Shown here: piece by piece, positions 5,136 through 19,075 of the stretch
Layout of the letters: each line of letters begins with the position of its first letter
Numbering within the stretch: the first letter of the stretch is position 1
From: Puniceicoccaceae bacterium
GTDB lineage: Bacteria > Verrucomicrobiota > Verrucomicrobiia > Opitutales > Oceanipulchritudinaceae
Length of the DNA: 64,000 bases
Direction of reading: 5' to 3'
NCBI GenBank assembly: GCA_040830765.1
Contig: JBFOMH010000003.1
Location: forward strand, 32,001 to 96,000
Translations under genes and position numbers: made by a program
The notes under the pieces: model-generated
Told to the model about the DNA's origin: nothing
Databases searched by the model: none
What the model saw: only the letters and a program-made list of their open reading frames with translations

Positions 5136-5795
5136 TCATTCCAACCCGTCCCGGGCAATGTTCTGGAAGTCCGTCTGGTTGACGAAGCCCTTCTGCATGG
5201 CGTAACGGATCAATTCGACCGTTGAGTGCAGTCCCAACTTGCGCATGATGCGCGCCTTGTGGTTCTGCACGCTGACCGGCCGCAGGTTCAGGCTCTCGGC
5301 AATCCGCTCGTTGGAGGCACCGGCCCCGAAGTAACGGAGCAGTTCCTGTTCCCGCTCGGTCAGGATTTTTGAAAACGCCAGGGGGTCCGTCTTCTGGATA
5401 AGCATGTTCTGCTGCACCGTGGCGGCATAATAGCAATTTCCTTCCCCAAGTTGCTGCACCGCTTTCTTCAGTTCCTCAATGGACTCGGTGTTCTTGTCAA
5501 CGAATCCAAACAGGCCGGTCATGAAGACCCGGTAGAGGGTGTACTCGTCGGTGCGTCCCGAGACACCGAGGATCCGCAGCTTGGGATTGACCTTGAGCAT
5601 GCGGTTGGCCAAGTCCAGACCGCTCCCGTCCGGCAGCTCAATATCGAGAATGGCGACATCCGGATTGTATTTTTCAAAGGCCTTCCACCCATCCTTGATA
5701 GTCTGGCAAGTGGCCACCAGTTCGAATTTTTCGGTCAGGCAATTACTGACCAGATCGATGCCCAGCTTTTGATCTTCAATGATGATGGTTTTCAT
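5136..5795 (-). CDS. NarL/LuxR-family response regulator
   Basis: Receiver domain (ED..., LDIELPDGSG, K) plus LuxR HTH (LTEREQELL...IAESLNL..VSVQNHKARIMRKLG). ATGA overlap with the kinase stop. Confidence 0.93.
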   Translation of the reverse strand: MKTIIIEDQKLGIDLVSNCLTEKFELVATCQTIKDGWKAFEKYNPDVAILDIELPDGSGLDLANRMLKVNPKLRILGVSGRTDEYTLYRVFMTGLFGFVDKNTESIEELKKAVQQLGEGNCYYAATVQQNMLIQKTDPLAFSKILTEREQELLRYFGAGASNERIAESLNLRPVSVQNHKARIMRKLGLHSTVELIRYAMQKGFVNQTDFQNIARDGLE

Positions 5796-8700
5796 GACCG
5801 TCTCCATTTCCGCAGTTCCAGTAGCCCTACGTGTATCTCGTCCATGTCACCGTTCTGGGCGGACACTTGTAAGTCACGACATACCTGCTGCATGGCGCGA
5901 TTATTCCGGATCATGGCGAGGGTAGTCAAGCGATGGGCGCATCGACGGAGATTTTCCCACTCGTAGCGGTCTCCGTAAAGGAGGCATTCGTCGATATGTT
6001 TGTAAATTTCCTCCATCACCTCATCGGCGGCTACCATATCGGTGGTGCTGGCGAGCTCCGGCTTGTAATTCTGGATATTGGCCAGACAGTAGGCCAGGCG
6101 GGCAGCTGTCAGTGGCTTGCTGATATAGCCATTCATGCCCGCTTCCTCGCTTTCGCGCTTTTTCTCCCCATCGGTATAGGCCGTTACGGCGACCAGGATA
6201 ACCTCGTCATCAGGATCCTTCTTGCGGTGGCGGCGGGCGATTTCCGGGCCGGTCAACCCGGGAAGGTCCCAATCCAGCAGGGCAAGGTAGTAGTCGTTCT
6301 TCTCCAGCTGTTCGAGGGCATCCCGGCCGTTCTCAGCCTCGTCGCAGGAACAACCAATGGTCTCAAAGAACTCCACCACCGAACGGCGGTTGTAGACCAG
6401 GTCATCCACGACGAGAATCTTTTTACCCTTCAACTGGGCCAGGACCGCCTCCTTGTCGAGCTCGGTGGCTCCCTCGACACGATCGAAGCGCCCCTTGAGG
6501 ACAAAGCGGCAACCGGAAGGTTGATTGTCTTCCAGCCGCAAGTGTCCCCCCATGGCATGGGCGATTTCCTGACAAATGGACAATCCCAGTCCCGTCCCGT
6601 GCTTCCCGCTTTCCACACCGCTTTCACCCCGGTAGAAGCGCTCAAAAATGAATTCGCGTTCGGACTCGTCAATGCCGATGCCCCAGTCGGCAACATACAG
6701 TTCAAGGTCGACTTCATGGTCGGTGATGTTGATGCAGGTGGCTCCAATCTCCACCCGGTCCGACTCCGCGTACTGGAGGGCATTAACCAGCAGGTTGCTC
6801 AAAATCTTGATCATCCAGTTCCGGTCTGTCCGGATGACGACATCAGCCAGTTCCGGGGAAATGACCGTGTTCAGGTTCACCATCTCATGCTGAAGGCTGA
6901 ACTGGTTCTGTTTCACCGAGCTCTCGATCAGGTCGTGGATGGAAACAGGTATGAAGGCCGTCGGGATGTTTTTCTGATCAATGGCCGAAAAGTCGAGGAT
7001 CTCACCCAGCATCCGGTCAACAATGACTCCGAATTCGGTCAGGTCCTTCAAGCGGGGATCATCTCCGGATTCCGGTGGATTCCTGGTCAGGGTCTCGGTA
7101 ATCATGAGAACCCCGTTCAAGGGATTGCGGATGTCATGCGACAAGCCGGCGAGGAAGTTAGTCCGAGCTGCGGTGGCGGCCTCCAATTCCCGTGTCTGTT
7201 TCTTGACCTCGCTTTGCAACCAGAGGTTGGTCCGCTTCAATTGCGCCGAACGCAGGGCGAACAAGCCCCAGAAAAAGAAGAGGGCCGCCACGACCATGAC
7301 TCCCTGGTAGATGGGATTCAAGTACCAGGGCGGGGCGATCCCGAATTGCACCAGCTTGGAGGAGGAAACATTTCCATTCGGGTGCATGGCCCGCAACTCC
7401 ACCGTGAAGTTGCCATGCCCGGCAAACTGCAGGGACGGATCCTGCAAATTGACGTTTCGCCACCGCTGCTCGTTGATGCGGTACTGGACGATGCTGGGAA
7501 TGTCCGGCTCGGAGAAATTCACCTGCAGGTCAATGAAGTGCATGCCGCTGGGAATGGTCCGGTCCTCGATGCGCTTGTCTTCCAGCAGCAGGGCAAACTC
7601 GACCCGGGGTGCCGCCGCTCGGGACAATTCCGGAACCGCATACCAACCGACACCATGCGCCCCGACGATGCCCAGCCGCTCACCCCCACCCATCAGGCCA
7701 ATTGCTTCCCCGGCCTGCTCCAGGAACGGAACGGTCATCATGATGTTGCCGGCGTCGGAATACATGCCGACGGCAAGGTTTCGCGTGGCTGGATCTTCAA
7801 AAAGGACATAGGTATCCTCGCCCGAGTTACTGAGTGACCTGACGGTCCATCCTGGTGCCAGGGGGAAGCGTTCCAGCGATTCACCCCTCCATCGATAGAC
7901 AACCGTCGGGGAGGCCAGCCAGACCGCATTCTCACCCGCCGCATGGGCAATGATGACGTCCTCCATCTTGTAGGGGAGCTCCACTGAGCGCCATCCGGAC
8001 CCTTCCCGGATTAACTGCAGAATCTGCTTGCCCCCGATGAGGGCGTAAAAGCCGGAATCCAATTCTCCAATCAGCTCAATCTGGCGCTCATCCTTGTGAA
8101 TCAGTTCGAGTTCGAATGTGTCGGAAACTGAGTAGATTCCCTCCACCCCAAGGGCAAAGCCCGTTGATTGGCCCCACTTGAAGCTGGATATCGGTTGGGT
8201 GAGCTCTCTTACCGACCAATCTTCTCCATTAAATTCTTCGTAAATATTAACTGCTCCCATCACTGGGAGGCCGTCCTTGTCAACATCCACCCAGCTCGCC
8301 GTCCGCAGGAGTTCACCTTTCTCATAACCATCATTATCCAACCGGATCCAACCCTCATCCAGAAAGAGAAAGCCTGCCTCTTCCCCAGCCAGAAAATGCC
8401 GGACACTGTCCCCTTCCCAAAGCTCCCCGGAAGGGAAAAACTTGGACTCCCTGCTGAAGTCAACCACCCCCACGCCCTTGTCACCAAGCATGGCGATCCG
8501 GGTTTTATCAAGGGCCCGGATCTTGAAAACATCGCCCAGATCCAGCTTTTCATCGCTGCTAACGCTTTCACTGATGCGTTCCAGTGACCGGTTCCATACC
8601 GCCACCCCGAGCGGGTACTCAGTAATGGCGATATAATCGCCAAGACCCGCTGAATTATTGATGCCCTTCTTGAAAAAGTCCCCGTAGTTGGAATTGATAA

Positions 8701-9406
8701 GAACCGGTTCATCGTTCTTCTTTCCCGACCAGTAATATACCCCGAAATTGGTCCCGAAGGTGTACTTCTCCCCGGTCCTTTCGAGCCAGGCGACCAGTTC
8801 TCCGTCCGTCATTTCAATGGGAAGGATAAGTTCCCGGCCTTCGGCCGTTATGCGCCAGATACCAGAACCTGACCCGACATACAAAAACGGATTTTCCGCA
8901 TCGGCATGGTAGACTACCGGCCGGGGATTAAAGGTCTCTTTCCAGTGCTGTCCGACTTGGAACGTATCTGGCTCGATCCATCCAAATCCCTCTGAAGCAA
9001 TATACCACAAACGGTCCAGGTACCACTCCAACGACCATACAAAACCGACTTCAAGGGTTGAGAATCCGACAAGTTTTCCCGATCTGTCGAAGCCGCCAAC
9101 ACCGGCGGAATCAGCAAACCAGAGTGTGTTTCCATTCGGTGAAACGGCGAGTGCGGTAACGCGCCCGGAGGGCCGTATTGTCTCCCACTGGTCACCGCTG
9201 AGCCGATACAATCCCTCCCCTGCGAGCCATATATCATCCGCGAACAGGCTGACATCATGATAGCTTGCCGGCGGCACCGATTCGAGCTTTTCGGCGAAGC
9301 GGTAGGCGGGACCCGTTAATGGATCCGCAATCAGGACGTTGATAAAATTTAATCCAACGAGGAATAGGAACTGTGGAAATATGGATGAAGACATTTTTTT
9401 AAACAT
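5792..9406 (-). CDS. Hybrid sensor histidine kinase: large periplasmic beta-propeller-like/Y_Y_Y-like sensor, TM, HisKA, HATPase, receiver, Hpt-like tail
   Basis: H-box SHDIRNPLNG, N-box NLLVNA, G1 DWGIG, G2 GTGLGL, receiver VDD/DWDLP/KP and C-terminal CAHRL. The real start is probably 9406 or 9394 (signal-like MSSSIFPQFLFLVGLNFINVLIA), not 9562. Confidence 0.9.
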   Translation of the reverse strand: MFKKMSSSIFPQFLFLVGLNFINVLIADPLTGPAYRFAEKLESVPPASYHDVSLFADDIWLAGEGLYRLSGDQWETIRPSGRVTALAVSPNGNTLWFADSAGVGGFDRSGKLVGFSTLEVGFVWSLEWYLDRLWYIASEGFGWIEPDTFQVGQHWKETFNPRPVVYHADAENPFLYVGSGSGIWRITAEGRELILPIEMTDGELVAWLERTGEKYTFGTNFGVYYWSGKKNDEPVLINSNYGDFFKKGINNSAGLGDYIAITEYPLGVAVWNRSLERISESVSSDEKLDLGDVFKIRALDKTRIAMLGDKGVGVVDFSRESKFFPSGELWEGDSVRHFLAGEEAGFLFLDEGWIRLDNDGYEKGELLRTASWVDVDKDGLPVMGAVNIYEEFNGEDWSVRELTQPISSFKWGQSTGFALGVEGIYSVSDTFELELIHKDERQIELIGELDSGFYALIGGKQILQLIREGSGWRSVELPYKMEDVIIAHAAGENAVWLASPTVVYRWRGESLERFPLAPGWTVRSLSNSGEDTYVLFEDPATRNLAVGMYSDAGNIMMTVPFLEQAGEAIGLMGGGERLGIVGAHGVGWYAVPELSRAAAPRVEFALLLEDKRIEDRTIPSGMHFIDLQVNFSEPDIPSIVQYRINEQRWRNVNLQDPSLQFAGHGNFTVELRAMHPNGNVSSSKLVQFGIAPPWYLNPIYQGVMVVAALFFFWGLFALRSAQLKRTNLWLQSEVKKQTRELEAATAARTNFLAGLSHDIRNPLNGVLMITETLTRNPPESGDDPRLKDLTEFGVIVDRMLGEILDFSAIDQKNIPTAFIPVSIHDLIESSVKQNQFSLQHEMVNLNTVISPELADVVIRTDRNWMIKILSNLLVNALQYAESDRVEIGATCINITDHEVDLELYVADWGIGIDESEREFIFERFYRGESGVESGKHGTGLGLSICQEIAHAMGGHLRLEDNQPSGCRFVLKGRFDRVEGATELDKEAVLAQLKGKKILVVDDLVYNRRSVVEFFETIGCSCDEAENGRDALEQLEKNDYYLALLDWDLPGLTGPEIARRHRKKDPDDEVILVAVTAYTDGEKKRESEEAGMNGYISKPLTAARLAYCLANIQNYKPELASTTDMVAADEVMEEIYKHIDECLLYGDRYEWENLRRCAHRLTTLAMIRNNRAMQQVCRDLQVSAQNGDMDEIHVGLLELRKWRRS

Positions 9407-9425
9407 ACTGTAAAAATGGAGCCCT

Positions 9426-9593
9426 ATGAAAAACATCAAACGCATCCTAATACTCGTTGTGGCTATCTGTTTAGCCTCAGTCGGGCTAAATGCACAAGCT
9501 GAAACCGTCAGTAAGAAGGTAATCAAGGATTTGGACTCCAAGAGTTCCGGTTCCATTCTCATGAGTATCTACTGTATCGTCGGCATCAAGTAG
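9426..9593 (+). CDS. 55-aa secreted peptide; candidate RiPP/signal-peptide precursor
   Basis: Manual translation: MKNIKRILILVVAICLASVGLNAQA|ETVSKKVIKDLDSKSSGSILMSIYCIVGIK. It has a basic n-region, an h-region and an AQA cleavage site, with GGAG upstream, and lies 57 bp before the YcaO-like gene. Confidence 0.75.
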   Translation: MKNIKRILILVVAICLASVGLNAQAETVSKKVIKDLDSKSSGSILMSIYCIVGIK

Positions 9594-9650
9594 CCCTTAG
9601 GAGTAACGCAACACTGAATACTAACCGTAACGTATAACAAAGGCCTAGAA

Positions 9651-10631
9651 ATGACCACCCTGTCACAGTCAGCAACGCTGCCCGTTCCCTATGATTTGAG
9701 CGCAGCACCCGAATGGTTCCTCAAGAAAGCACGCTTCGCCAAGCGGTTTTTCCTGAATCTTGCCCCCATCCGCTATGCGCTGGCTGCTGAAGAAGGGGGT
9801 CCTATCAGCCAGGTGGAATACGGCCAGGCGGAATACATGGGCCAGCTCTGGCAGCTGTGCCGGGCGACCTTGCAGGAGGATTTCCAGCACCCGATGGGGA
9901 AAAAGCTGGAGTTGTTCTCCTCCGCAGACGGCTCGGGCATGGGGCTGACACGGCTTGAGGCCCGCGCCAAGGCTATCTCCGAAGCCCTCGAACGCTGGGC
10001 CTACACGGAGACCAGTTCCGGACCGGACGCTGTTCTCTATGGATATCCGTATTCCATGAGTACCAAGGGCATGGCCGCCTTTCCCAGTGTTTTCCCGGGA
10101 ATGGCACGCCGCACCGCCATTTCAGAGGCTTTTGAATACTACTCGGTGGACGCGTGGTGGGGAGGCACTCTCAACCACTGGATAATCAATCGGGACGATT
10201 CAACTATCGTCTTCATCAACCAGCCTGAGTTCAAGGGACATATCGCCTTGGCTATCCGGCACCTCGACCTGAACGACTATGTCGCCGCTTACGGGATAGG
10301 ATCGGGTGCTACGGCTGAAGAAGCCGAACTCAAGGCACAACTGGAAGCCTGCCGCTCACAGACCATTCTCGAACGGCGTGATGCGACACCCCACCGTGTC
10401 CGTAACAAGCCCGTCCTGGAAATGGAACAACGCCTGCTCGAGTTCTCTTCGCGCGAAGGCTTTGCCATGGTCAAGGATCGTCTTGCCAGTCGCCCGTGGT
10501 TGCCGGAAATCAAGCCCAACGTCATCTTCGACGGACCGGTCAAGGGACCATGGAATAAGTACGCCCATGTCTGGCGCTACGCACTGGAGCCCTTCCCGAT
10601 TAAGTATCGCCAACGTCAGTTTGTTGCCTGA
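9651..10631 (+). CDS. YcaO-like protein (stand-alone, short)
   Basis: Three YcaO-type ATP/Mg motifs: GSGMG...AKAISEALERWA, TKGMAA...AISEAFE and YGIGSG...AELKAQLE. Confidence 0.75.
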   Translation: MTTLSQSATLPVPYDLSAAPEWFLKKARFAKRFFLNLAPIRYALAAEEGGPISQVEYGQAEYMGQLWQLCRATLQEDFQHPMGKKLELFSSADGSGMGLTRLEARAKAISEALERWAYTETSSGPDAVLYGYPYSMSTKGMAAFPSVFPGMARRTAISEAFEYYSVDAWWGGTLNHWIINRDDSTIVFINQPEFKGHIALAIRHLDLNDYVAAYGIGSGATAEEAELKAQLEACRSQTILERRDATPHRVRNKPVLEMEQRLLEFSSREGFAMVKDRLASRPWLPEIKPNVIFDGPVKGPWNKYAHVWRYALEPFPIKYRQRQFVA

Positions 10632-10698
10632 CCAGGCACCGCTGCTGCCAATCTGCTGTCAATCTCCACAAACCGTCTTCATCCTAACCACAGGCACA

Positions 10699-11193
10699 AT
10701 GAGCACGCATGAAAGCACTTTCAACTTCCCGTTCATCTCCAACCTGATTTCTGACAAGGCTGGTGAGCGAACGAGCCAATTCCGTAAACAGGCTGTCTCC
10801 ATGAAAGAAAAAGCCCTCTGCCTTGACGACGACCCCCTTTCGCTTCGTCTGGTTGAGCACCTGTTGAAGGAGCGCTACCAGGTTGTTTCCTGTCCCACCA
10901 TTGATGCCGCAGTCAAGGCGGTACGGCGGCACAAGTTCTGCCTCTTCCTGTGCGACTATCATCTCGGGGAGCATTTCACTGGCGCTCGCGCCAACGAAAT
11001 CCTCACCCGGAAATACCGTTTCAATCCAATCCACCGGGTTCTGATCACTTCCTACCCGTCGCCGGAAATTGAAAAGGAGACCCTGGCCAGCGGATTTGAA
11101 AGAGTATTCGCAAAACCGCTACGTCGAGAGTTCCAATCCTATTGCCTGAGCCTTTACCGTCCTCCCCTCAAGAGTGGCATGGCCGTAGGCTGA
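10699..11193 (+). CDS. Single-domain response regulator (CheY-like receiver)
   Basis: LCLDDD, LFLCDYHLG, LITS and FAKP motifs. Start is 10699 or 10801. Confidence 0.82.
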   Translation: MSTHESTFNFPFISNLISDKAGERTSQFRKQAVSMKEKALCLDDDPLSLRLVEHLLKERYQVVSCPTIDAAVKAVRRHKFCLFLCDYHLGEHFTGARANEILTRKYRFNPIHRVLITSYPSPEIEKETLASGFERVFAKPLRREFQSYCLSLYRPPLKSGMAVG

Positions 11194-11409: not shown

Positions 11410-13599
11410 ATGACTCTCGCTGCCAGACTGACGGCCTTGTTGATTATCGTCGCCGTCACGCCCGACCTCCCGGGCAAACCCAAGCCGGTTCCGGCTACCG
11501 GGCATGGAGTGCCACCGCCTCCGGTTGAGCTGAGCGGATCAAACGACACCCTGCTGCAGGCCAACCTGGCACCTGAGAACCAATATTCGATCGGCAGTCC
11601 CTCCGATGAAGAGCAGGCCATTGTCGAGATGATTAACCGGGCCCGTGCGGATGCCGACGCGGAAGCGCTACGTCTCGCCAATACCACCGACCAGGATGTC
11701 CTGGATGCGATCTGCTTTTTTGGTGTCAACCTGCCGGAGATGATCAACCAGTTCGCTGCCCTCCCCCAGTCCCTTCCCCCGCTTTCCATCCATCCTGAAT
11801 TAACGGATATGGCCCGCCTTCATTCCCAGGACATGTTTGACAATGTTTTCCAGGGCCACACCAGTTCCGGCACTCCCCCCGCTCCCTACTCCGCCGGGGA
11901 CACACTCTCAGACCGTGCTGCCGAGTTCACCTATGCCTACACGACGCTCGGAGAGAATGTTTATGCCTTCGCCAGATCTGATGCCTATGGTCATGCCAGT
12001 TTTGAAATCGACTGGGGATTCGATGCCTTTGGGATGCAAAGCCCACCGGAACACCGGGAAACGATTCATGATGCCCGATTTAAGGAAATTGGAATTGGCA
12101 TTATCAAGGGAACTAATTCGACCGAGTCCCTGACCGTTGGTCCCTTGCTGATGACCCAGGTATTCGGCGAGCCCCAGTCGTCAGGTCCCTTTATTACGGG
12201 CGTCGCCTATTACGACCTCAATGGAAATGGATTTTATGACGCCGGAGAGGGACTTGGCGGATTGACCGTTTCCACCGAGGAAACGACGGCCTGGGCACTG
12301 ACCGCAAACAGCGGGGGTTACTCCATTCCGGTCCCGTCGGATGGCGCCTACACGGTTACATTTTCCGGGTTAGGCATCACGCCCCAGACTACGGTCGTCA
12401 ACGTGGCGTCCGGGGAAAACATCAAGCAGGACTTTGCCATTGGATATGTCCCACCCGTCCTCTCCGGCTCATCCACGCCCTTTACCGGGATCGACAACGA
12501 ATATGCCATATCTCCAACGCCAGGAGCTACTGGCTACTGGTTCAAGGTATATACTGAAAATGTCACTACATGGCTGGAGGGGGCCGAGAACGGTAACACG
12601 GATGTCACGATCCTCAACAGCCCTGAATACGTCGTCATCCAGGGAGAGGTGGTCCGCAACGGGGCCAATGCCTTTCACCTTGCCCATCCGGGAGGCGGAA
12701 GCGACCAGGTCATCACGCTTCAGCATACCATATTTCCAACCGCCAGCAGTGAACTTCGTTTTGGCAGCAAGCTGCAGTATGCAACCTCCTCGCAAACGGC
12801 CAATGTGGACGTATCCACCAACGAAGGAATATCATGGACCAATATTTACCGCCAGACAGGATCCAACTCCAGCGGGGAAGCCGGTTTTGTCTACCGTTTT
12901 GTCCCTCTGGGAAGTTATGCCGGCCAACCGCTGCGGATTCGCTTCCGCTACTCCGTTGAAGGATGCAACCCCTCCATCTACGATGGTATCACCACAAACA
13001 TTGGCTGGATTATCGACGACATTACGGTGGCCAACGCGACCCGCTTGCTCCCGGAAAGCGAATTCATCCTGGGGTCCCCAATAGCGACTTTCAATCCCGC
13101 CACCGCCGGGGAATTCTACCTCACTGCCCGTCCGGTCAACAATTTCAAGGGCTTCCCCTATGGTCCGCTCCTCAAGGTAACATCCGGACCTGCCGGGCCG
13201 CAGGACTTGTGGCGGCTGGATAACTTCCTCCAGGCCGACCTCAATGACTCAGCCAAGGAATCGACAATATGGGGCGACCTCGCTGATCCCGACAAGGATG
13301 GATTGGGCAACTTACTTGAGTACGCCCTGGCGGGTAATCCCAACCTCGCCGATGCCCACATGATTATGCCGCAGTTCGGCCGGTCGGGAGGTGTCCTGAC
13401 GCTCAGTTACACGATGCAACGCTCTGAATTGAGCTACCGCGTCCTGACGAATACGGATCTCCAGGACCAGCCATGGACATCAACCGGGGTCAGCCAGACG
13501 CCGGATCCCGACACCGCGAGCGAAGGCACCCCCATAGAGGCTTCCGTGACCCTCGGCGTTGGTCGCCGTTTCCTGCAGCTTGAGGTGGTTGAGCCCTGA
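11410..13599 (+). CDS. Secreted CAP/SCP-domain protein with prealbumin-like and beta-sandwich domains and a verrucomicrobial C-terminal domain
   Basis: INRAR, ARLHSQDM..FQGH, GENV, HRETI..FKEIGIG (CAP); FITGVAYYDLNGNGFYDAGEGL; C-terminal DPDKDGLGNLLEYAL. Confidence 0.82.
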   Translation: MTLAARLTALLIIVAVTPDLPGKPKPVPATGHGVPPPPVELSGSNDTLLQANLAPENQYSIGSPSDEEQAIVEMINRARADADAEALRLANTTDQDVLDAICFFGVNLPEMINQFAALPQSLPPLSIHPELTDMARLHSQDMFDNVFQGHTSSGTPPAPYSAGDTLSDRAAEFTYAYTTLGENVYAFARSDAYGHASFEIDWGFDAFGMQSPPEHRETIHDARFKEIGIGIIKGTNSTESLTVGPLLMTQVFGEPQSSGPFITGVAYYDLNGNGFYDAGEGLGGLTVSTEETTAWALTANSGGYSIPVPSDGAYTVTFSGLGITPQTTVVNVASGENIKQDFAIGYVPPVLSGSSTPFTGIDNEYAISPTPGATGYWFKVYTENVTTWLEGAENGNTDVTILNSPEYVVIQGEVVRNGANAFHLAHPGGGSDQVITLQHTIFPTASSELRFGSKLQYATSSQTANVDVSTNEGISWTNIYRQTGSNSSGEAGFVYRFVPLGSYAGQPLRIRFRYSVEGCNPSIYDGITTNIGWIIDDITVANATRLLPESEFILGSPIATFNPATAGEFYLTARPVNNFKGFPYGPLLKVTSGPAGPQDLWRLDNFLQADLNDSAKESTIWGDLADPDKDGLGNLLEYALAGNPNLADAHMIMPQFGRSGGVLTLSYTMQRSELSYRVLTNTDLQDQPWTSTGVSQTPDPDTASEGTPIEASVTLGVGRRFLQLEVVEP

Positions 13600-13606
13600 G
13601 GTTTCC

Positions 13607-14767
13607 CTAATTGGGGCTGGCTACAAAACGGATGAGCAGGGCATCATGCTCAAGGGGCAGGAGGATTTGCTCCAGGACGATGGCCCGGCCATCGGAAATC
13701 CGGGTATCCAGGTTGAGAACAGAACCGGCCATTTGCCACGTTTCGCCATCGTGGCTGTAGTGGATATTTAATTCAACTTCCGCACCGAGGTTCCTCCAAT
13801 ATACCAGGGAATATCCATCTTCAGGATCGATCGCCTGGGAGATAGAGGGCCGGCTGCCGGCATCGCTGGGGTCGGATGCGAACAGGTATTCCATCAATTG
13901 CGACCAGCCATCCCTGTCTGTGTCAGCGTTTTCCACTGGCTCCAAGGCATATCCCCCGCTCCAGTCAGCAAAGGAGACAACGGGAACGGTGGCCGGGTTC
14001 ATCACACCAACCGCATCCAAGTCAAATCCGGACGTAATGATCGTTGGATACGGATCATAAATCGCGTAGCCCTCGCAATCCATCCGGGTGCCATCCCCCG
14101 GTATGTCAACCAGGCGGACATACCGGATCGCCTCCATGTTTAAATACGGAAAATTCTCCTCCACCGATTCAGCATAGGCTTCACTGAACCGGTCATAGCC
14201 CTGCAGCAGGGCAGCATGGACCGCGGCGAGCTCGGCCAGGTCAAACGGGGTTCCAAATCCCCCCGCGTGCTTCCCGGCAAATCCCTCGATGTATTCCGGT
14301 TGTAATACCCCGAATGCACCGACGGGCTCCGCAGTCAGGGAGTAATTGGGAAACCGGACAAAATGCAGGCCATCTGAGGAAACCTCCACATAGGCCAATT
14401 CGAGAAATGTCCCGCTGAAGCTGTTTTCAAACACGGCAAAGTCGTAGCCCCCACCATCCCGGATTGAGGGCGTGAATTCCAGGACTGCCGAGCCGCCACG
14501 ACCCAATACGACGACGTCATTCCCGTTCAGAAAAGCCGGACCGAGACCTGCTTCCGGCGTTTTCCACTCCTCAGCCACTTCCTCGCCGTACGTAACCTCG
14601 ATCCCTGTGGCCCAACCCTTGATGACCGGGTCTTGATTCCAGATAGCGACTGTTCCCGGTTCCCCGGCGGCCGGACTGAAGGGAAACACCGGAGCTTCAT
14701 ATCCCAGTGCCAGCGTTGGCGGAAATCCGGTAATGGCCAGCAGCCCAAACTGAAGAAGGTGCCTCAT
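13607..14767 (-). CDS. Secreted/cell-surface protein associated with a TonB-dependent receptor
   Basis: Signal peptide; [30 protein letters not shown] and GFDLDAV motifs; starts 6 bp after the TBDR stop. Confidence 0.75.
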
Positions 14768-14773
14768 ATTGCC

Positions 14774-16801
14774 TTATATGGAGTAATTAAGCCGGATGAA
14801 GGCCTGACGTCCCGGGCCCGGGTAAAAGCCTCCGCTATAGGCGGAAACCGCGTGGTTTCGATCAAACAGGTTGTGAATACCCCCCGACACAACAAATTGG
14901 GGGTGGGGATTCCAGCGGAACATCAGATCCACGATCCCATAGGCGGGAATCCTGCGGAAGGCGTTCGCGAAGTCATTCCCCTGAACCTGTGATGATAAGT
15001 AGCGACCGTGAAGTTGTATTCGCAGGGAATCAACCGGCTTGAACCAGCCGGTGAGCCCACCCTCGTACCGGGGAACAAGTGGCAGCCGCTTTCCTACAGA
15101 CTCGTCCTCGAATTCAGTCCGCACCACGGTGGCATGCATGGAAATGCCGTAGCGGTCTTTTCGATACGCTGCATTCAGCTCCAAACCGCTCCGGACTGTG
15201 TCACCAATATTGATGTTCAGGCGCTCTGACTCGGAAAAGCTGATCTCATCATCCATGCGCAAGTGGAAGACGGTCGCCGAAAGGTGCCAGTTGTCCTCAA
15301 AGCGCTTCAACCCGGCCTCGAAATTATGGCCCGTTTCCGGCTCCAAATTCACGTTGAGGGGATCCCTCAGGGGAAATCCCTGGTAAGAAGCCGTTTCATC
15401 AAGCGCCGGATACCGGTAGACACGGTCCCAGCCGGCCCACAGATTGAGCCCTTGGGACAACTTCTTTACCAGTGAAACCTCAGCCGACCAGCCGGACTTT
15501 GTAATTGTGCCGTCATATGAGGCCTCCTCATCGATATCCGGATTCTCCTGGTATTCGGGATTCGGGAATGTGCCTCGGTTCGTCTCGATAAACGGGTTCA
15601 GCTGATTCTCCTCGTAGCGGACATAGTCATTCGCTGAACGCGCTGTCTCCAGTCGCAACCCTCCCGACAATTCCAGGGTGGAGCTCAACTCCCTTGAAGA
15701 AAACAGGTATCCCCCCACGGTCAGGCGCCCGATATCCGCAAAGGAGCGTAGAATGTCCCCCGCTTCATTCGTATAGTCCCGATGCCGCACCTCATCTCCG
15801 GCAATGTCCAGACCCGTCATCAAGAACCCTTTACCGTCGCCCAGACGGACCCGCGGGGATAGCGTCAACTGGCGTTGGCGGTTGTCCCCAAATCTCCCTT
15901 CCAGGTTGGACTGGCGCTGGCGCTGCAAAACTCCACCGTTCATTTGCCAGCTGCCCCAATCTTCCTGGCCTTCCCCCATCAGGGTCGCCTGCCAGTTCTC
16001 TGCCTCAACCCGCTCCTTGCCTCCGTTGTTGGACTGGCGCGGATTTTCCCGGAACTGCCCATAGGTCAACGGCCCGGGAAATTGGATCGCTGAGTCTCCA
16101 GCCGTAAACCGTCCCCTCCACCTGGGACCACTGGTTCCACCCACATTCCAGGATAGGTGGCCGGTTCGGCTCTCAATATCCGAGTTTTCCCGGTAGCCTT
16201 TGGATTCCATCCAGTCGAGCCCACCCCGCAGGCCCACGGTCCCCAGCGCCTGCTGCAGGGATGCCGATGCCCGGCGTGTGGCATCACTTCCAAATTCTCC
16301 CTCAAGGTTTCCTGCCAATTCGCCCCCAGGTTCCCGGGTGCGCAACTTCACCACTCCGGATACGGCATGGTTCCCATACAAGACCGTCTGCCCCCCACGC
16401 AGGACTTCCACCGTCTCCAACTCCCCCAGCGAAAGGCCCAGCCAGTTAATTCCCCCCATGTCCGGCGGATTGTACACCTGCCCGTCCACCAGTACCAATA
16501 CCCGCAAGCCGCTGTTGTCCCCAAAACCCCTCAGGGCCAGCTGCCCCTCCGCTCCTGTCCCGGTGAATTGGCGAAACCGTACCCCAGCCGCCTGCTCCAA
16601 TACCTGCGGCACGCTCCACGCCCCGCTCGTCTCCAAATCCACCCGCTCCAGACGCACCACGCTCGCCGGTATCTCCATCCCCAGCCCGTCAAAATGCCAC
16701 GCTTCCACCACGTACGGACCCAGCTCCACCACCGGCTCCGCTTCCACCCTCAGAACCGCCAGTAGCAACAGGATTATCCACCTCTGTCCATTTCCCTTCA
16801 C
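14774..16801 (-). CDS. TonB-dependent receptor
   Basis: Plug motifs LRGFG..VLVLVDG and EVLRGG..LYG..A..GVV; LEPETG; NLFD; C-terminal IRLNYSI. GTG start at 16801 with GGAGG RBS. Confidence 0.9.
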   Translation of the reverse strand: MKGNGQRWIILLLLAVLRVEAEPVVELGPYVVEAWHFDGLGMEIPASVVRLERVDLETSGAWSVPQVLEQAAGVRFRQFTGTGAEGQLALRGFGDNSGLRVLVLVDGQVYNPPDMGGINWLGLSLGELETVEVLRGGQTVLYGNHAVSGVVKLRTREPGGELAGNLEGEFGSDATRRASASLQQALGTVGLRGGLDWMESKGYRENSDIESRTGHLSWNVGGTSGPRWRGRFTAGDSAIQFPGPLTYGQFRENPRQSNNGGKERVEAENWQATLMGEGQEDWGSWQMNGGVLQRQRQSNLEGRFGDNRQRQLTLSPRVRLGDGKGFLMTGLDIAGDEVRHRDYTNEAGDILRSFADIGRLTVGGYLFSSRELSSTLELSGGLRLETARSANDYVRYEENQLNPFIETNRGTFPNPEYQENPDIDEEASYDGTITKSGWSAEVSLVKKLSQGLNLWAGWDRVYRYPALDETASYQGFPLRDPLNVNLEPETGHNFEAGLKRFEDNWHLSATVFHLRMDDEISFSESERLNINIGDTVRSGLELNAAYRKDRYGISMHATVVRTEFEDESVGKRLPLVPRYEGGLTGWFKPVDSLRIQLHGRYLSSQVQGNDFANAFRRIPAYGIVDLMFRWNPHPQFVVSGGIHNLFDRNHAVSAYSGGFYPGPGRQAFIRLNYSI

Positions 16802-16856
16802 GTGACCTCCATACCCCTCATAATGGCACGGGAATGTCAATAAGGAAGGGAGTGTG

Positions 16857-18128
16857 CTATTGGGCACTGGCTCGGATGAACCGGGGGGCACCTGGCTGGA
16901 GGGCATTGGCATCCCTGACGGTGAGGTTCCATGTCCCGTCGCCGTTGGGGGAATTCCCTTCGACAATGACCTCGGCGGGATCGCTGGAGCTCCATGAACC
17001 GTCAAAGGACAGGGAGACACTGGTCCATCCGGCAAGGTCGCTACCCACTTCTACCGTATATTGGAGATCGGGGTCCTCACGGGTAGAGAAGACAGCCTGG
17101 AGGTGGCGCGCTCCGGTCAGCTCCGTCGTCCCGGAAAGCAGGGGTACGGGGTCGGTTGGATCGGAAGGGTCGAGGACAAAGGCGTATTCGGTAAAGTTGT
17201 CCAATCCGTCGCCATCGAAGTCGACAGCCGGACCAGCGACCGCCCAGTCGGTTGTCCCGAAGGCGGAGTTCATCCAGGAGACATACCCCGCCGTGGCGTC
17301 AACGGAGAAAGCAGAAATGGAGGCATCCAGGGAAGCGGCATAGTTCCCGATGTAGGAAAAGCCACTCAAGTTGCGCAGGTCCTCGAAGGCAGGCCGGCTG
17401 TCAATATCCACTGTTCCAATGAACCAGTTGATTCCAATCAGGGTAAGGACACCGCCGACGTCCCGCAGAAGAGGGGCTCCGGAATCTCCAATTTGCAGAT
17501 AAGCTTCGAAAGACACAAAATCCGGATCATCCGGCAGGTCCTGGTAGGCCAGTACAGCCTGATCGACAGTGCCAGAGTCACTGAAGTCCTCAATCCAATC
17601 ATTGAGGATATTCTTCCCCAGCGCCATATCGGTCACCAAAGGGAAGCTGGAAGGGGAACGGCCGACCATGAATGCCTCCTCGCCCGCATGCGAGGAGCTG
17701 AAGAAGCCAGCCGTATTGGCGATGGCCTCATCGGTGAAGGACATGGGAGTGTATCCGGCTGGGACTGGATCGGCCAATACACCCAGCCAGAGATCCGAGT
17801 CTTCAACCCTTTGCCCGGCAATGAGCTGCCTGCTCACAGATTCACCTGAGGGGTCGTTCGATTGATGGAATGTCATCGTACTCCCGATGGCCGGAAAGAA
17901 GTGATTGGCGGAAAGGATAACGTTTCCGCTGACCAGGGTACCCCAGCGCCCGGATTCGTTGAGGCCAATTGCCGAGAGGTCATAGGCAGCCGCGACAAAA
18001 GCCGGGTCGTTGCTGAATCGATCGTTACTGCCGCTGCTAAAGCCTTCAATGACAATGGCAGCCTCTCCCTGAAGACTCCCGCCGAGAAGGGCTCCGAGAA
18101 GCAGCAAAAATGGATTCCGACCAGGCAT
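16857..18128 (-). CDS. Secreted trypsin-like serine-protease-fold protein with verrucomicrobial C-terminal domain
   Basis: Signal peptide; ILSANH (His), DLW (Asp candidate) and GDSGAPL (Ser); C-terminal DFDGDGLDNFTEYAF. Confidence 0.7.
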   Translation of the reverse strand: MPGRNPFLLLLGALLGGSLQGEAAIVIEGFSSGSNDRFSNDPAFVAAAYDLSAIGLNESGRWGTLVSGNVILSANHFFPAIGSTMTFHQSNDPSGESVSRQLIAGQRVEDSDLWLGVLADPVPAGYTPMSFTDEAIANTAGFFSSSHAGEEAFMVGRSPSSFPLVTDMALGKNILNDWIEDFSDSGTVDQAVLAYQDLPDDPDFVSFEAYLQIGDSGAPLLRDVGGVLTLIGINWFIGTVDIDSRPAFEDLRNLSGFSYIGNYAASLDASISAFSVDATAGYVSWMNSAFGTTDWAVAGPAVDFDGDGLDNFTEYAFVLDPSDPTDPVPLLSGTTELTGARHLQAVFSTREDPDLQYTVEVGSDLAGWTSVSLSFDGSWSSSDPAEVIVEGNSPNGDGTWNLTVRDANALQPGAPRFIRASAQ

Positions 18129-18301: not shown

Positions 18302-19075
18302 ATGAATATATACTACTACCTCTCCTTGATTCCGGAATCCCTGGTGGCCTCGATGCTGCCGCCGGAGGAATTCGGCAATTATTATGCCCTTGGATCGCAC
18401 AAGCGCTCCCGCGGCCAGGCGATCTTCTTCGAGATCGATCCGGAAAAGGCCGGAGACGCTGTCGACATGGAAACAGTGGCCGCCCGCTGCGTCCCGCACG
18501 AGGACGGCAGCCCCCGCAAGTCGACCTACTTGCGGATTTACCGTGCCCTGGAATCGGTTTCCACGGAAGCCCTGGGGCGTCTTTTCCTGACCACGGATGA
18601 CGGCCGGACATTGGCCCTGGAATCCAAGGATTATGAGCCGGAGACGGATCGGACCCCGCACCTCTATCAGGAGATTTGCCCTGTCAATCCCCGGGTCGTC
18701 AGCAAGCTGAATCCTTATGACTTCTGCAAGCGCCTGACCTCGCCGGGTTCCATTCATGTCCCCAGGATTGTCTTTGCCGAGATGAAGCTGGAGGAGCTGG
18801 CCGAGGATCCGGATGCCCCGAAGGTGGAAAACCTCCCCTACGCCAACCTGGATCACCTCCGTGATTGCCTCAAGGAACTGCGGCATACCTATGCCAAGCC
18901 GAACAAGACGGTCATCCGGCACATGAAGACCGACTTTCTATTCCGCACCATCCGTGGCGGATTCTACATCGGGGACCAGGAGTCATTCCTCTATTACCCG
19001 ATACCGAGCATGGAGGAACTGGAAACCGTTCATTACGCATGGTGGCGCTCAGCGCTATCCGGATACGGAGCCTGA
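18302..19075 (+). CDS. Hypothetical cytoplasmic protein
   Basis: 257-aa ORF with genome-typical codon usage, ending 33 bp upstream of hppA. Confidence 0.75.
   Translation: MNIYYYLSLIPESLVASMLPPEEFGNYYALGSHKRSRGQAIFFEIDPEKAGDAVDMETVAARCVPHEDGSPRKSTYLRIYRALESVSTEALGRLFLTTDDGRTLALESKDYEPETDRTPHLYQEICPVNPRVVSKLNPYDFCKRLTSPGSIHVPRIVFAEMKLEELAEDPDAPKVENLPYANLDHLRDCLKELRHTYAKPNKTVIRHMKTDFLFRTIRGGFYIGDQESFLYYPIPSMEELETVHYAWWRSALSGYGA

Follow-up and report, generated by a model that had tools for sequence, protein, structure and literature searches.

Organization of the locus

The window analyzed here is a stretch of 64,000 nucleotides from a Puniceicoccaceae bacterium (Verrucomicrobiota, Opitutales; contig JBFOMH010000003.1, positions 32,001 to 96,000), in which we studied a locus of five open reading frames (ORFs) centered on a YcaO-family enzyme and its putative precursor peptide. 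A preliminary description of this DNA had proposed a self-contained system that makes and senses a YcaO-modified peptide. All five ORFs were present at the positions it had listed. On the plus strand, a 55-aa precursor (9426..9593) is followed by a compact stand-alone YcaO-family enzyme of 326 aa (9651..10631) and by a stand-alone receiver (REC) domain of 164 aa (10699..11193). The minus strand carries an unorthodox hybrid histidine kinase of about 1200 aa (5792..9406) and a NarL/FixJ-type response regulator of 219 aa (5136..5795), composed of a REC domain and a LuxR-type helix-turn-helix domain. Pfam assigned HisKA, HATPase and REC domains to the kinase, REC and GerE to the regulator, and REC to 10699-11193.

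The kinase most plausibly starts at 9394 or 9406, since the database lists a protein of 1200 aa and its close relatives, where complete, have about 1170-1220 aa. We rejected the ORF start at 9562, which would run antisense across the peptide gene. The divergent start codons of the kinase and the peptide are thus separated by 19-31 bp, so that each promoter must sit within the other gene (window 9339-9562), and the 5' ends of the two transcripts probably overlap. The longest ORF of the regulator starts at 5807; its start is most likely 5795, where an ATGA overlap with the kinase stop supports the translational coupling of the two genes that had been suggested before. The lone receiver, found after the YcaO gene in the loci L002-L011, is specific to the clade of the window and may act as a phosphate sink.

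In the nearest named relative locus, the YcaO is 98% identical to that of the window, by which the host is judged to be close to Puniceicoccaceae/Oceanipulchritudo within Opitutales. A second complete locus was found in the same genome (G000:C28:43634-49379, L001), with a peptide, a YcaO, a divergent propeller kinase and a convergent regulator. Its peptide has an LPC core and its YcaO is 32% identical, and the two loci are two channels in one cell.

The YcaO enzyme

The window's enzyme scored below the gathering cut-off of the Pfam YcaO family (PF02624; 23.8 bits for a gathering threshold of 25.7, E 3.4e-5) and under the NCBIfam cut-offs. A whole-genome search with the Pfam model matched neither YcaO copy, and a sequence search of solved structures, using the YcaO profile or one relative, found no YcaO. 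Among distant relatives, 46/50 matched Pfam YcaO at E <= 0.01. The AlphaFold2 (AF2) model (pLDDT 88) confirmed the YcaO fold by structure comparison. Every listed Foldseek match down to E 1.5e-3 was a YcaO protein, and the VIA comparison gave a Z score of 17.4 with McbD (rmsd 3.7, 256 residues aligned), 16.6 with a LynD-type heterocyclase, 16.1 with MusD and 16.0 with an archaeal thioamide YcaO, the best unrelated fold reaching 6.7. In the ESM Atlas, the enzyme falls among YcaO clusters; the peptide gave only sub-0.9 leads.

Residues E111, E114, R115, E159, E162 and E232 correspond to E75, E78, R79, E199, E202 and E290 of E. coli YcaO, the E111/E114/R115 motif being matched by eye and the remaining glutamates by hhalign at low probability. 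We take E75, E78, R79, E199 and E290 of the E. coli enzyme to act in ATP/Mg binding. These motif positions are near-invariant across 370 family sequences. An E202A variant of E. coli YcaO appears in PMC13063428. By its modelled fold and its motifs, the window's enzyme is a member of the YcaO superfamily, as the preliminary description had read it.

The aligned range runs to the last residue of the model in McbD and the cyanobactin heterocyclases and ends at 318-322 in archaeal YcaOs. As this range gives first and last residues alone, we regard the C-terminal end shared with McbD and the cyanobactin enzymes as a hint of function; residue P396 of McbD is described as important for catalysis in PMC6722960.

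The family comprises 731 clusters (50% identity) at E 0.001 and 314 at 1e-30. In the 97%-complete genome, we observed no match to TfuA (PF07812; a control genome was positive), no TIGR03603/E1-type partner and no SagB-type dehydrogenase over cut-off, and the window's cluster encodes neither an E1-like C protein or RiPP recognition element (RRE; RiPP, a ribosomally made peptide that is modified post-translationally) partner nor a dehydrogenase. These genome scans and the neighbor scans below agree with the earlier statement that a TfuA, an E1-type partner, a dehydrogenase, a peptidase, an exporter and an immunity gene are lacking. Little is known about stand-alone YcaOs, according to PMC4603692. 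At about 300 aa, the enzyme has no partner in view and escapes the standard profiles, which makes it a blind spot of genome mining as well as a candidate minimal tool for modifying peptides.

The precursor peptide

The 55-aa ORF is real: it is kept in 10/10 close loci with an invariant Cys50, and in comparison with the nearest relative its nonsynonymous divergence (dN) is 0.008 for a synonymous divergence (dS) of 0.25. It consists of a Sec-type leader, a spacer and a core with a single Cys (ILMSIYC, Cys50), as defined by the family profile and by conservation. From the A-x-A rule, the leader would be cleaved after AQA at residue 25. The window peptide matched no meaningful Pfam or NCBIfam family, no relative out of ten scored over cut-off, and the window peptide gave no match to AgrB/AgrD, ComQ/ComX or another named pheromone family. 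With a profile made from ORFs upstream of YcaO genes in the fetched genome loci, a search of the 4-Mb genome returned exactly 2 matches, each directly 5' of a YcaO gene.

We compared 149 distinct peptides, after 5 broken or partial rows had been dropped; 19 Cys-free second copies were set aside, leaving 130 first copies. The leader is conserved at a Gly (147), an Ala (144) and an Asp (133). A Cys is found after residue 27 in 126/130 first copies, the first Cys lying 20-23 residues (interquartile) past the leader Asp. A Pro precedes 99/233 of the Cys after residue 27, and CxxxC occurs in 50/130 cores. The cores diverge strongly even between loci with a YcaO identity above 85%.

In one clade, well supported in the tree, the precursors are short (39-48 aa). 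The window leader is of the Sec type, in line with the export proposed earlier; this does not extend to the short-peptide clade, where the hydrophobic core is weak or absent in 6/7 measured peptides (0.25-1.57 vs 3.22 in the window peptide). These short peptides end in aromatic-Pro-Cys in 3 loci and in aromatic-Pro-Thr in 4 loci and L075 (for example SYPCEV vs TFPTEV). This Cys/Thr interchange at the core site points to azoline chemistry; a lactone or thiolactone would also be compatible with it. A homologous TonB-dependent receptor (about 900 aa, 30-70% identity) lies directly downstream of the YcaO gene in 7/10 short-peptide loci (L074, L075, L093, L097, L101, L102 and L105), which suggests outer-membrane passage of the peptide in this clade. 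Several of these loci have no adjacent NarL-type regulator. The window's own TonB receptor (14774-17035) is outside the receptor clade linked to short peptides.

Tandem peptides of the leader family were observed in L012, L013, L015, L016, L020, L022, L024-L026 and several metagenome loci. The first has a Cys core and the second is usually Cys-free with a conserved FDPV motif; it is possibly a decoy, an inhibitor or a leader supplied in trans. In the precursors of L034, L046, L060, L092 and L096, upstream of the YcaO gene, the core is repeated 2-4 times in tandem, like cyanobactin-type cassettes.

The sensor kinase

The domain order of the kinase is signal peptide, periplasmic sensor, one transmembrane helix, HisKA, HATPase, REC and HPt. 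The preliminary description had named a hybrid kinase with a periplasmic sensor: its domains were borne out, its start had to be corrected, the sensor measures about 670 aa instead of about 700, and the HPt domain had been missed. The C-terminal HPt His is kept in 48/49 aligned C-termini. Pfam Hpt scored over cut-off in 3/6 tested kinases; the window copy matched weakly (E 0.02). The kinase could thus signal to the regulator through a four-step relay.

The sensor (7322..9325, minus strand) was modelled by AF2 with a pLDDT of 91 as an all-beta double beta-propeller followed by a Y_Y_Y domain. The top Foldseek matches were the Bacteroides proteins BT4673, BT4663 and BT3049 (best E 2e-23). Pfam Reg_prop was detected in 4/4 relatives and Y_Y_Y in 2/4, and neither by sequence in the window copy.

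The sensor is the fastest-evolving protein domain of the locus, with a dN of 0.10-0.15 compared to 0.009-0.027 in the rest of the kinase, about ten-fold higher and yet well below dS. Its identity to the nearest relative is 81% where that of the kinase core is 97%, and falls to 35-42% where the core is at 72-80%. Co-folding of the sensor with peptide residues 26-55 gave a score of 0.03 for a mark of 0.32, which is no answer and was used neither way.

Conservation of the system

The genome loci were taken from the best 80 of 279 genome hits, and the counts refer to loci with enough flank. The peptide lies upstream of the YcaO gene in 75/76 genome loci, on which the peptide profile itself was built. 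A divergent propeller sensor kinase was found in 65/69 and a NarL-type regulator in 42/47. The synteny that the preliminary description had asked to verify was thus strongly confirmed. Among the metagenome loci, which were not used in building the profile, 65 were classed as Opitutales-type and 15 were set aside by their neighbors and C-termini. The Opitutales-type loci had the peptide in 55/58, the three misses showing similar small ORFs by eye, and the divergent propeller kinase in 36/38. Out of 201 evenly sampled Opitutales genomes, 25 had the YcaO. These 25 loci, 4 of which repeat earlier contigs, had a divergent kinase in 24; 16 matched the peptide profile and 8 more had a short ORF by eye. 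Named strains with the locus are Oleiharenicola lentus 23ND54W-5 and Horticoccus sp. 23ND18S-11.

A scan of 130 downstream proteins showed no conserved enzyme, peptidase or exporter, and immunity, glycan-utilization or metal-homeostasis genes were not conserved among the scanned neighbors. What flanks the module is not conserved; downstream, additional receivers and PAS kinases turn up repeatedly. The PLD and PCMT genes upstream of the window's locus, which are not conserved across the family, were not retained, nor was G153/L106, a partial YcaO match where the module is absent. L070 and L139 have a YcaO and a directly divergent kinase with no adjacent peptide detected. A nitroreductase follows the YcaO gene in L070, L139 and L156 alone (L156 is cut upstream), and this variant may use a distant precursor and make an azole product. 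On one metagenome contig, two different loci of the system (L204 and L205) lie about 6.5 kb apart.

Receptor exchange in Bdellovibrionota

In the phylum to which a Bdellovibrionales record belongs, 33/301 genomes also have homologs of the YcaO family, with E < 1e-30 in 12. We fetched 18 Bdellovibrionota regions: an SBP_bac_5 gene adjoins the YcaO gene in 14, and a small kinase lies within about 3 kb in 14. Six metagenome loci supply further cases of this binding protein. The best NCBIfam matches of the binding proteins were OppA and NikA, all below cut-off, and no Opp permease or ATPase was found among the 52 neighbors scanned (of 130 listed). The small kinases tested have two transmembrane helices about 110-140 residues apart. 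The leader family recurs in these loci: against the Opitutales profile, twelve small ORFs gave weak matches (E 4e-6 to 0.8). In the distant form L150-L152, a sigma-54 response regulator, a small ORF, an OppA-like protein, the YcaO and a kinase are encoded in one direction.

As judged from gene content and sequence matches, the propeller sensor is replaced in Bdellovibrionota by an orphan OppA-like binding protein and a small kinase. The linkage of peptide, enzyme and kinase is kept while the receptor changes to a peptide-binding-type family, which is, in our view, the best reason to read the peptide as the ligand.

A candidate feedback operator

An imperfect 20-bp palindrome (9338..9357, unstranded) lies at -88 to -69 from the peptide ATG, inside the signal-peptide codons of the kinase. 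It is found at -88 in 10/10 loci of the clade, and L011 has it in perfect form despite encoding different residues at this place. Its pairwise DNA identity is 87%, compared to 37-59% for neighboring 20-mers and 53-67% for the peptide coding sequence. The motif has a single match in the window and none in 100 shuffles.

Motif discovery was run on 114 non-redundant loci, which are kin, taking the 170 bp before each peptide gene, with two shuffles as control. A palindrome TACCgg-AT-ccGGTA was detected in 82/114, with a log-likelihood of 389 vs 23 for the two shuffles, and 73 of these 82 loci have the site at -70, -90 or -120. It resembles the 7-2-7 sites of NarL-type regulators. The palindrome of the window's clade differs from this wider motif. 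In the 8 loci of the clade that were examined, the regulators have an almost identical recognition helix, and across loci the same helix goes with the same type of palindrome, a correspondence that descent alone could explain. At its fixed position, the conserved palindrome suggests a feedback operator of the peptide operon.

Proposed mechanism and alternative explanations

Overall, we favor an autoregulated loop in which the YcaO-matured peptide is the ligand of the kinase. The compact YcaO would bind the conserved leader in the cytoplasm and, with ATP, would convert the bond in front of the core Cys (Tyr49-Cys50) into a thiazoline by cyclodehydration (-18 Da). Since no dehydrogenase is encoded, the product would remain an azoline. 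The leader would double as a Sec signal peptide, and signal peptidase would free a product of about 30 residues into the periplasm, where general proteases may trim it. This product would bind the double-propeller sensor and switch a His-Asp-His-Asp relay through the REC and HPt domains of the kinase to the NarL-type regulator, which would bind the -88 palindrome and exert feedback on the operon of peptide, YcaO and receiver; the receiver, encoded in the same direction, might serve to drain phosphate. The computed basis of this proposal is the gene content, the folds, the catalytic and phosphorelay residues, the one-to-one pairing of peptide and YcaO, the palindrome and the receptor swap, while the chemistry, the binding and the regulation are predicted. 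As the module is kept in two unrelated Gram-negative groups, it is most likely an undescribed system that makes and senses a modified peptide. The earlier claim of a self-contained system is thus partly supported, by the synteny, the receptor swap and the fixed-position palindrome, and weakened by the co-variation analysis below.

A broader proposal, to which we give somewhat less than even credence, is a widespread class of cell-to-cell peptide signaling in diderms (Opitutales and Bdellovibrionota), in which a minimal YcaO, a leader doubling as Sec signal, one backbone heterocycle or, in the Bdellovibrionota form, an Asn-based modification, interchangeable receptors (the propeller sensor, or an orphan OppA-like protein and a small kinase) and an own operator would be combined.

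Several observations weigh against the favored loop. The preliminary description had proposed to look for co-variation of peptide and sensor, and none was found: with kinase identity allowed for, sensor and peptide-core identity gave a partial r of -0.1 (97 non-independent pairs; whole-domain identity is a crude proxy for the binding pocket), and the same ILMSIYCIVG core occurs beside sensors merely 38-42% identical. Of all findings, this one speaks most strongly against a strict lock-and-key match. Sugar sensors are known to have the propeller fold, and BT4663 is heparin-sensing according to its PDB title. The sensor family was found in 37/201 Opitutales genomes, of which 13 have no YcaO, and a third copy in the window's genome, the orphan propeller kinase at G000:C13:110006-113905 (L234), has no peptide or YcaO; it could listen to the peptides of other strains or sense something else. 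In Bdellovibrionota, the OppA-like proteins match nickel-binding NikA about equally well. The peptide tails there mostly carry an Asn-Gly-type motif, with a Cys in the last 32 residues in 3/12, which implies a non-uniform chemistry. Scanning the genome with the clade palindrome gave no convincing second site (next score 19.6, training site 32.9). The window's locus encodes no route out through the outer membrane; as Sec transport stops at the periplasm of the producing cell, where its own sensor sits, the loop may be private and cell-to-cell signaling is conjectural. Finally, in the enzyme, Arg163 (equivalent to E. coli R203) is replaced by Tyr, His or Phe in 56/56 sequences with Lys139 (Tyr in the window copy), and the window's clade sits on a long branch of the YcaO tree, a quick, midpoint-rooted tree with long branches from which no order of events was drawn.

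Some of these points would suit a regulated effector RiPP, in which the kinase responds to an external cue (sugar, metal complex or stress) and the regulator turns on a Sec-exported, YcaO-modified peptide that is the output and not the ligand, for example for periplasmic metal binding as in the bufferins. The glycan-sensor fold, the sensors found without a YcaO, the CxxxC cores, the likeness of the binding proteins to NikA and the missing co-variation all agree with it, and the palindrome would fit plain control of an effector operon as well as autoinduction. The bufferins offer a precedent for Cys-modified, Sec-exported RiPPs under a dedicated regulator (PMC11626156). We nevertheless consider this explanation unlikely, since the cores are highly variable among close relatives, unlike a conserved chelator, and immunity, exporter, glycan-utilization or metal-homeostasis genes are not conserved among the scanned neighbors. 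In addition, two unrelated receptor types, one from a peptide-binding-type family, are tied to the same peptide and enzyme.

If instead the peptide were a ligand read in the producer's periplasm alone, the parts would be those of the favored loop, with no exchange among cells, and the peptide would report secretion flux, the ATP state, a leaky envelope or confinement. Sec delivery and the sensor share one compartment, no exporter is encoded, no matched peptide-sensor dialects were found, and a 3-kDa peptide exceeds the usual porin limit. Social specificity would more readily account for the variability of the cores among close relatives, and the TonB-dependent receptor directly 3' in 7/10 short-peptide loci also speaks against such a private gauge, which we regard as rather improbable.

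It is very improbable that the YcaO no longer cyclizes in the window's clade and serves as a degenerate leader-binding chaperone, a MusD-like ATP-dependent peptidase or the modifier of another protein, the peptide staying unmodified: the loss of the R203 equivalent, a change at the N181 equivalent, the long branch, the peptide-less L070 and L139, and the precedents of peptide cleavage by MusD (PMC10885120) and of ribosomal protein modification by E. coli YcaO (PMC13063428) are outweighed by the five glutamates and R115 all being kept, a dN of 0.011 for a dS of 0.42 in the enzyme, an invariant Cys50, and Lys139, which is present exactly where Arg163 is lost and so looks compensatory.

Comparison with known systems

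The loop favored here, with the peptide as ligand, shares features with several known systems. The azoline YcaO cyclodehydratases (McbD of microcin B17, LynD/TruD, MusD) have the same fold (Z 16-17), the ATP/Mg glutamate motifs, the same C-terminal structural end and a Cys/Thr-bearing precursor next door. In contrast, the window's family is shorter (about 300 aa), is 12-15% identical to them and scores below the Pfam/NCBIfam cut-offs; it would target 1-2 residues rather than a poly-azole core, and its C-terminus is F-x-W/F/A and not Pro-rich. Its locus also lacks an E1/RRE partner, a dehydrogenase, an exporter and an immunity gene.

Peptide-pheromone circuits are textbook knowledge in Gram-positive bacteria, and the com systems of Bacillus and Streptococcus presumably have the same precursor-maturase-kinase-regulator layout. 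In the agr system, a precursor, one maturing enzyme, a kinase and a regulator are likewise linked in one locus, as described in PMC10885120. Variable core and sensor and a probable feedback operator are further likenesses of agr and com to the window's system. However, its host is a diderm, a YcaO replaces AgrB or ComQ, and a single-pass periplasmic propeller sensor with a REC-HPt relay and a NarL-type regulator stands where agr and com have a polytopic kinase; no matched peptide-sensor variation was found in the window's family. The system most probably works like agr and com and is a member of neither.

The bufferins likewise have a RiPP precursor with a Sec signal, Cys modification before export and no dedicated exporter, their signal peptide being dispensable for modification; they depend on MNIO and DUF2063 enzymes, a folded 68-residue core with four conserved Cys and extracytoplasmic function (ECF) sigma control (PMC11626156). 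By contrast, the window's system is built on a YcaO, with a core that is short and variable and control through a two-component relay, and no MNIO/DUF2063 enzyme or four-Cys precursor was observed in the window's locus or the scanned neighbors.

The Bacteroides hybrid sensors BT4663, BT4673 and BT3049 resemble the kinase in their double propeller and Y_Y_Y domain, single transmembrane helix, kinase and REC, and presumably carry a fused AraC domain; the window's kinase differs by its HPt domain, its separate NarL-type regulator and the lack of conserved glycan-utilization genes nearby. The Bdellovibrionota form, with its orphan periplasmic binding protein and two-helix kinase, resembles the LuxP-LuxQ type of receptor, a pair of periplasmic binding protein and kinase; its binding protein, however, is of the OppA/NikA family and encoded in line with the peptide and the YcaO, and it is not the form of the window.

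The system is real, conserved and unnamed in Pfam and NCBIfam, and lies outside the TOMM, TfuA and bufferin systems. In the open-license literature, as judged from result lists and the first lines of abstracts, we found no description of this YcaO family or of a YcaO-made signal, although subscription papers or mining supplements could list such loci; nor did these searches turn up a YcaO-made ligand, a peptide ligand for a Bacteroides-type propeller sensor or such a loop in Verrucomicrobiota. New in this analysis are the HPt domain of the kinase, the conserved -88 palindrome, the Cys/Thr alternation in one clade and the receptor swap in Bdellovibrionota. The system is directly testable, with two small genes for the chemistry, one soluble domain for binding and one 20-bp site for regulation.

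Additional observations

RNA-library contigs cover the locus in a mollusc-metagenome study and in a second study with guessed RNA status, one contig spanning 9498-11264. The summed contig depth was by far highest in the peptide-gene bin in 3 recorded-RNA runs (8395, 4198 and 72) and not in the fourth. These contigs were not counted as evidence of expression, since genes cannot be ranked by the depth of contigs, those of relatives are among them and the libraries may contain DNA. At 9498-9748, contigs of 90-95% identity bear variant peptide and YcaO alleles in the same samples; related strains with different alleles therefore co-occur.

Downstream of the locus, three secreted-looking proteins are encoded at 11410-13599 (CAP-domain), 13607-14767 (no family) and 16857-18128 (trypsin-like), with the TonB receptor between them. 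They share a C-terminal D-x-D-x-D-G motif followed by EY, and this segment is possibly a common surface-anchoring domain. A 257-aa protein without a Pfam family (18302-19075) precedes a 740-aa membrane protein resembling H+-pyrophosphatase, and in L007 ORFs of the same sizes as this pair follow directly after the receiver gene, the counterpart of the 257-aa protein lying at L007:9063-9839.

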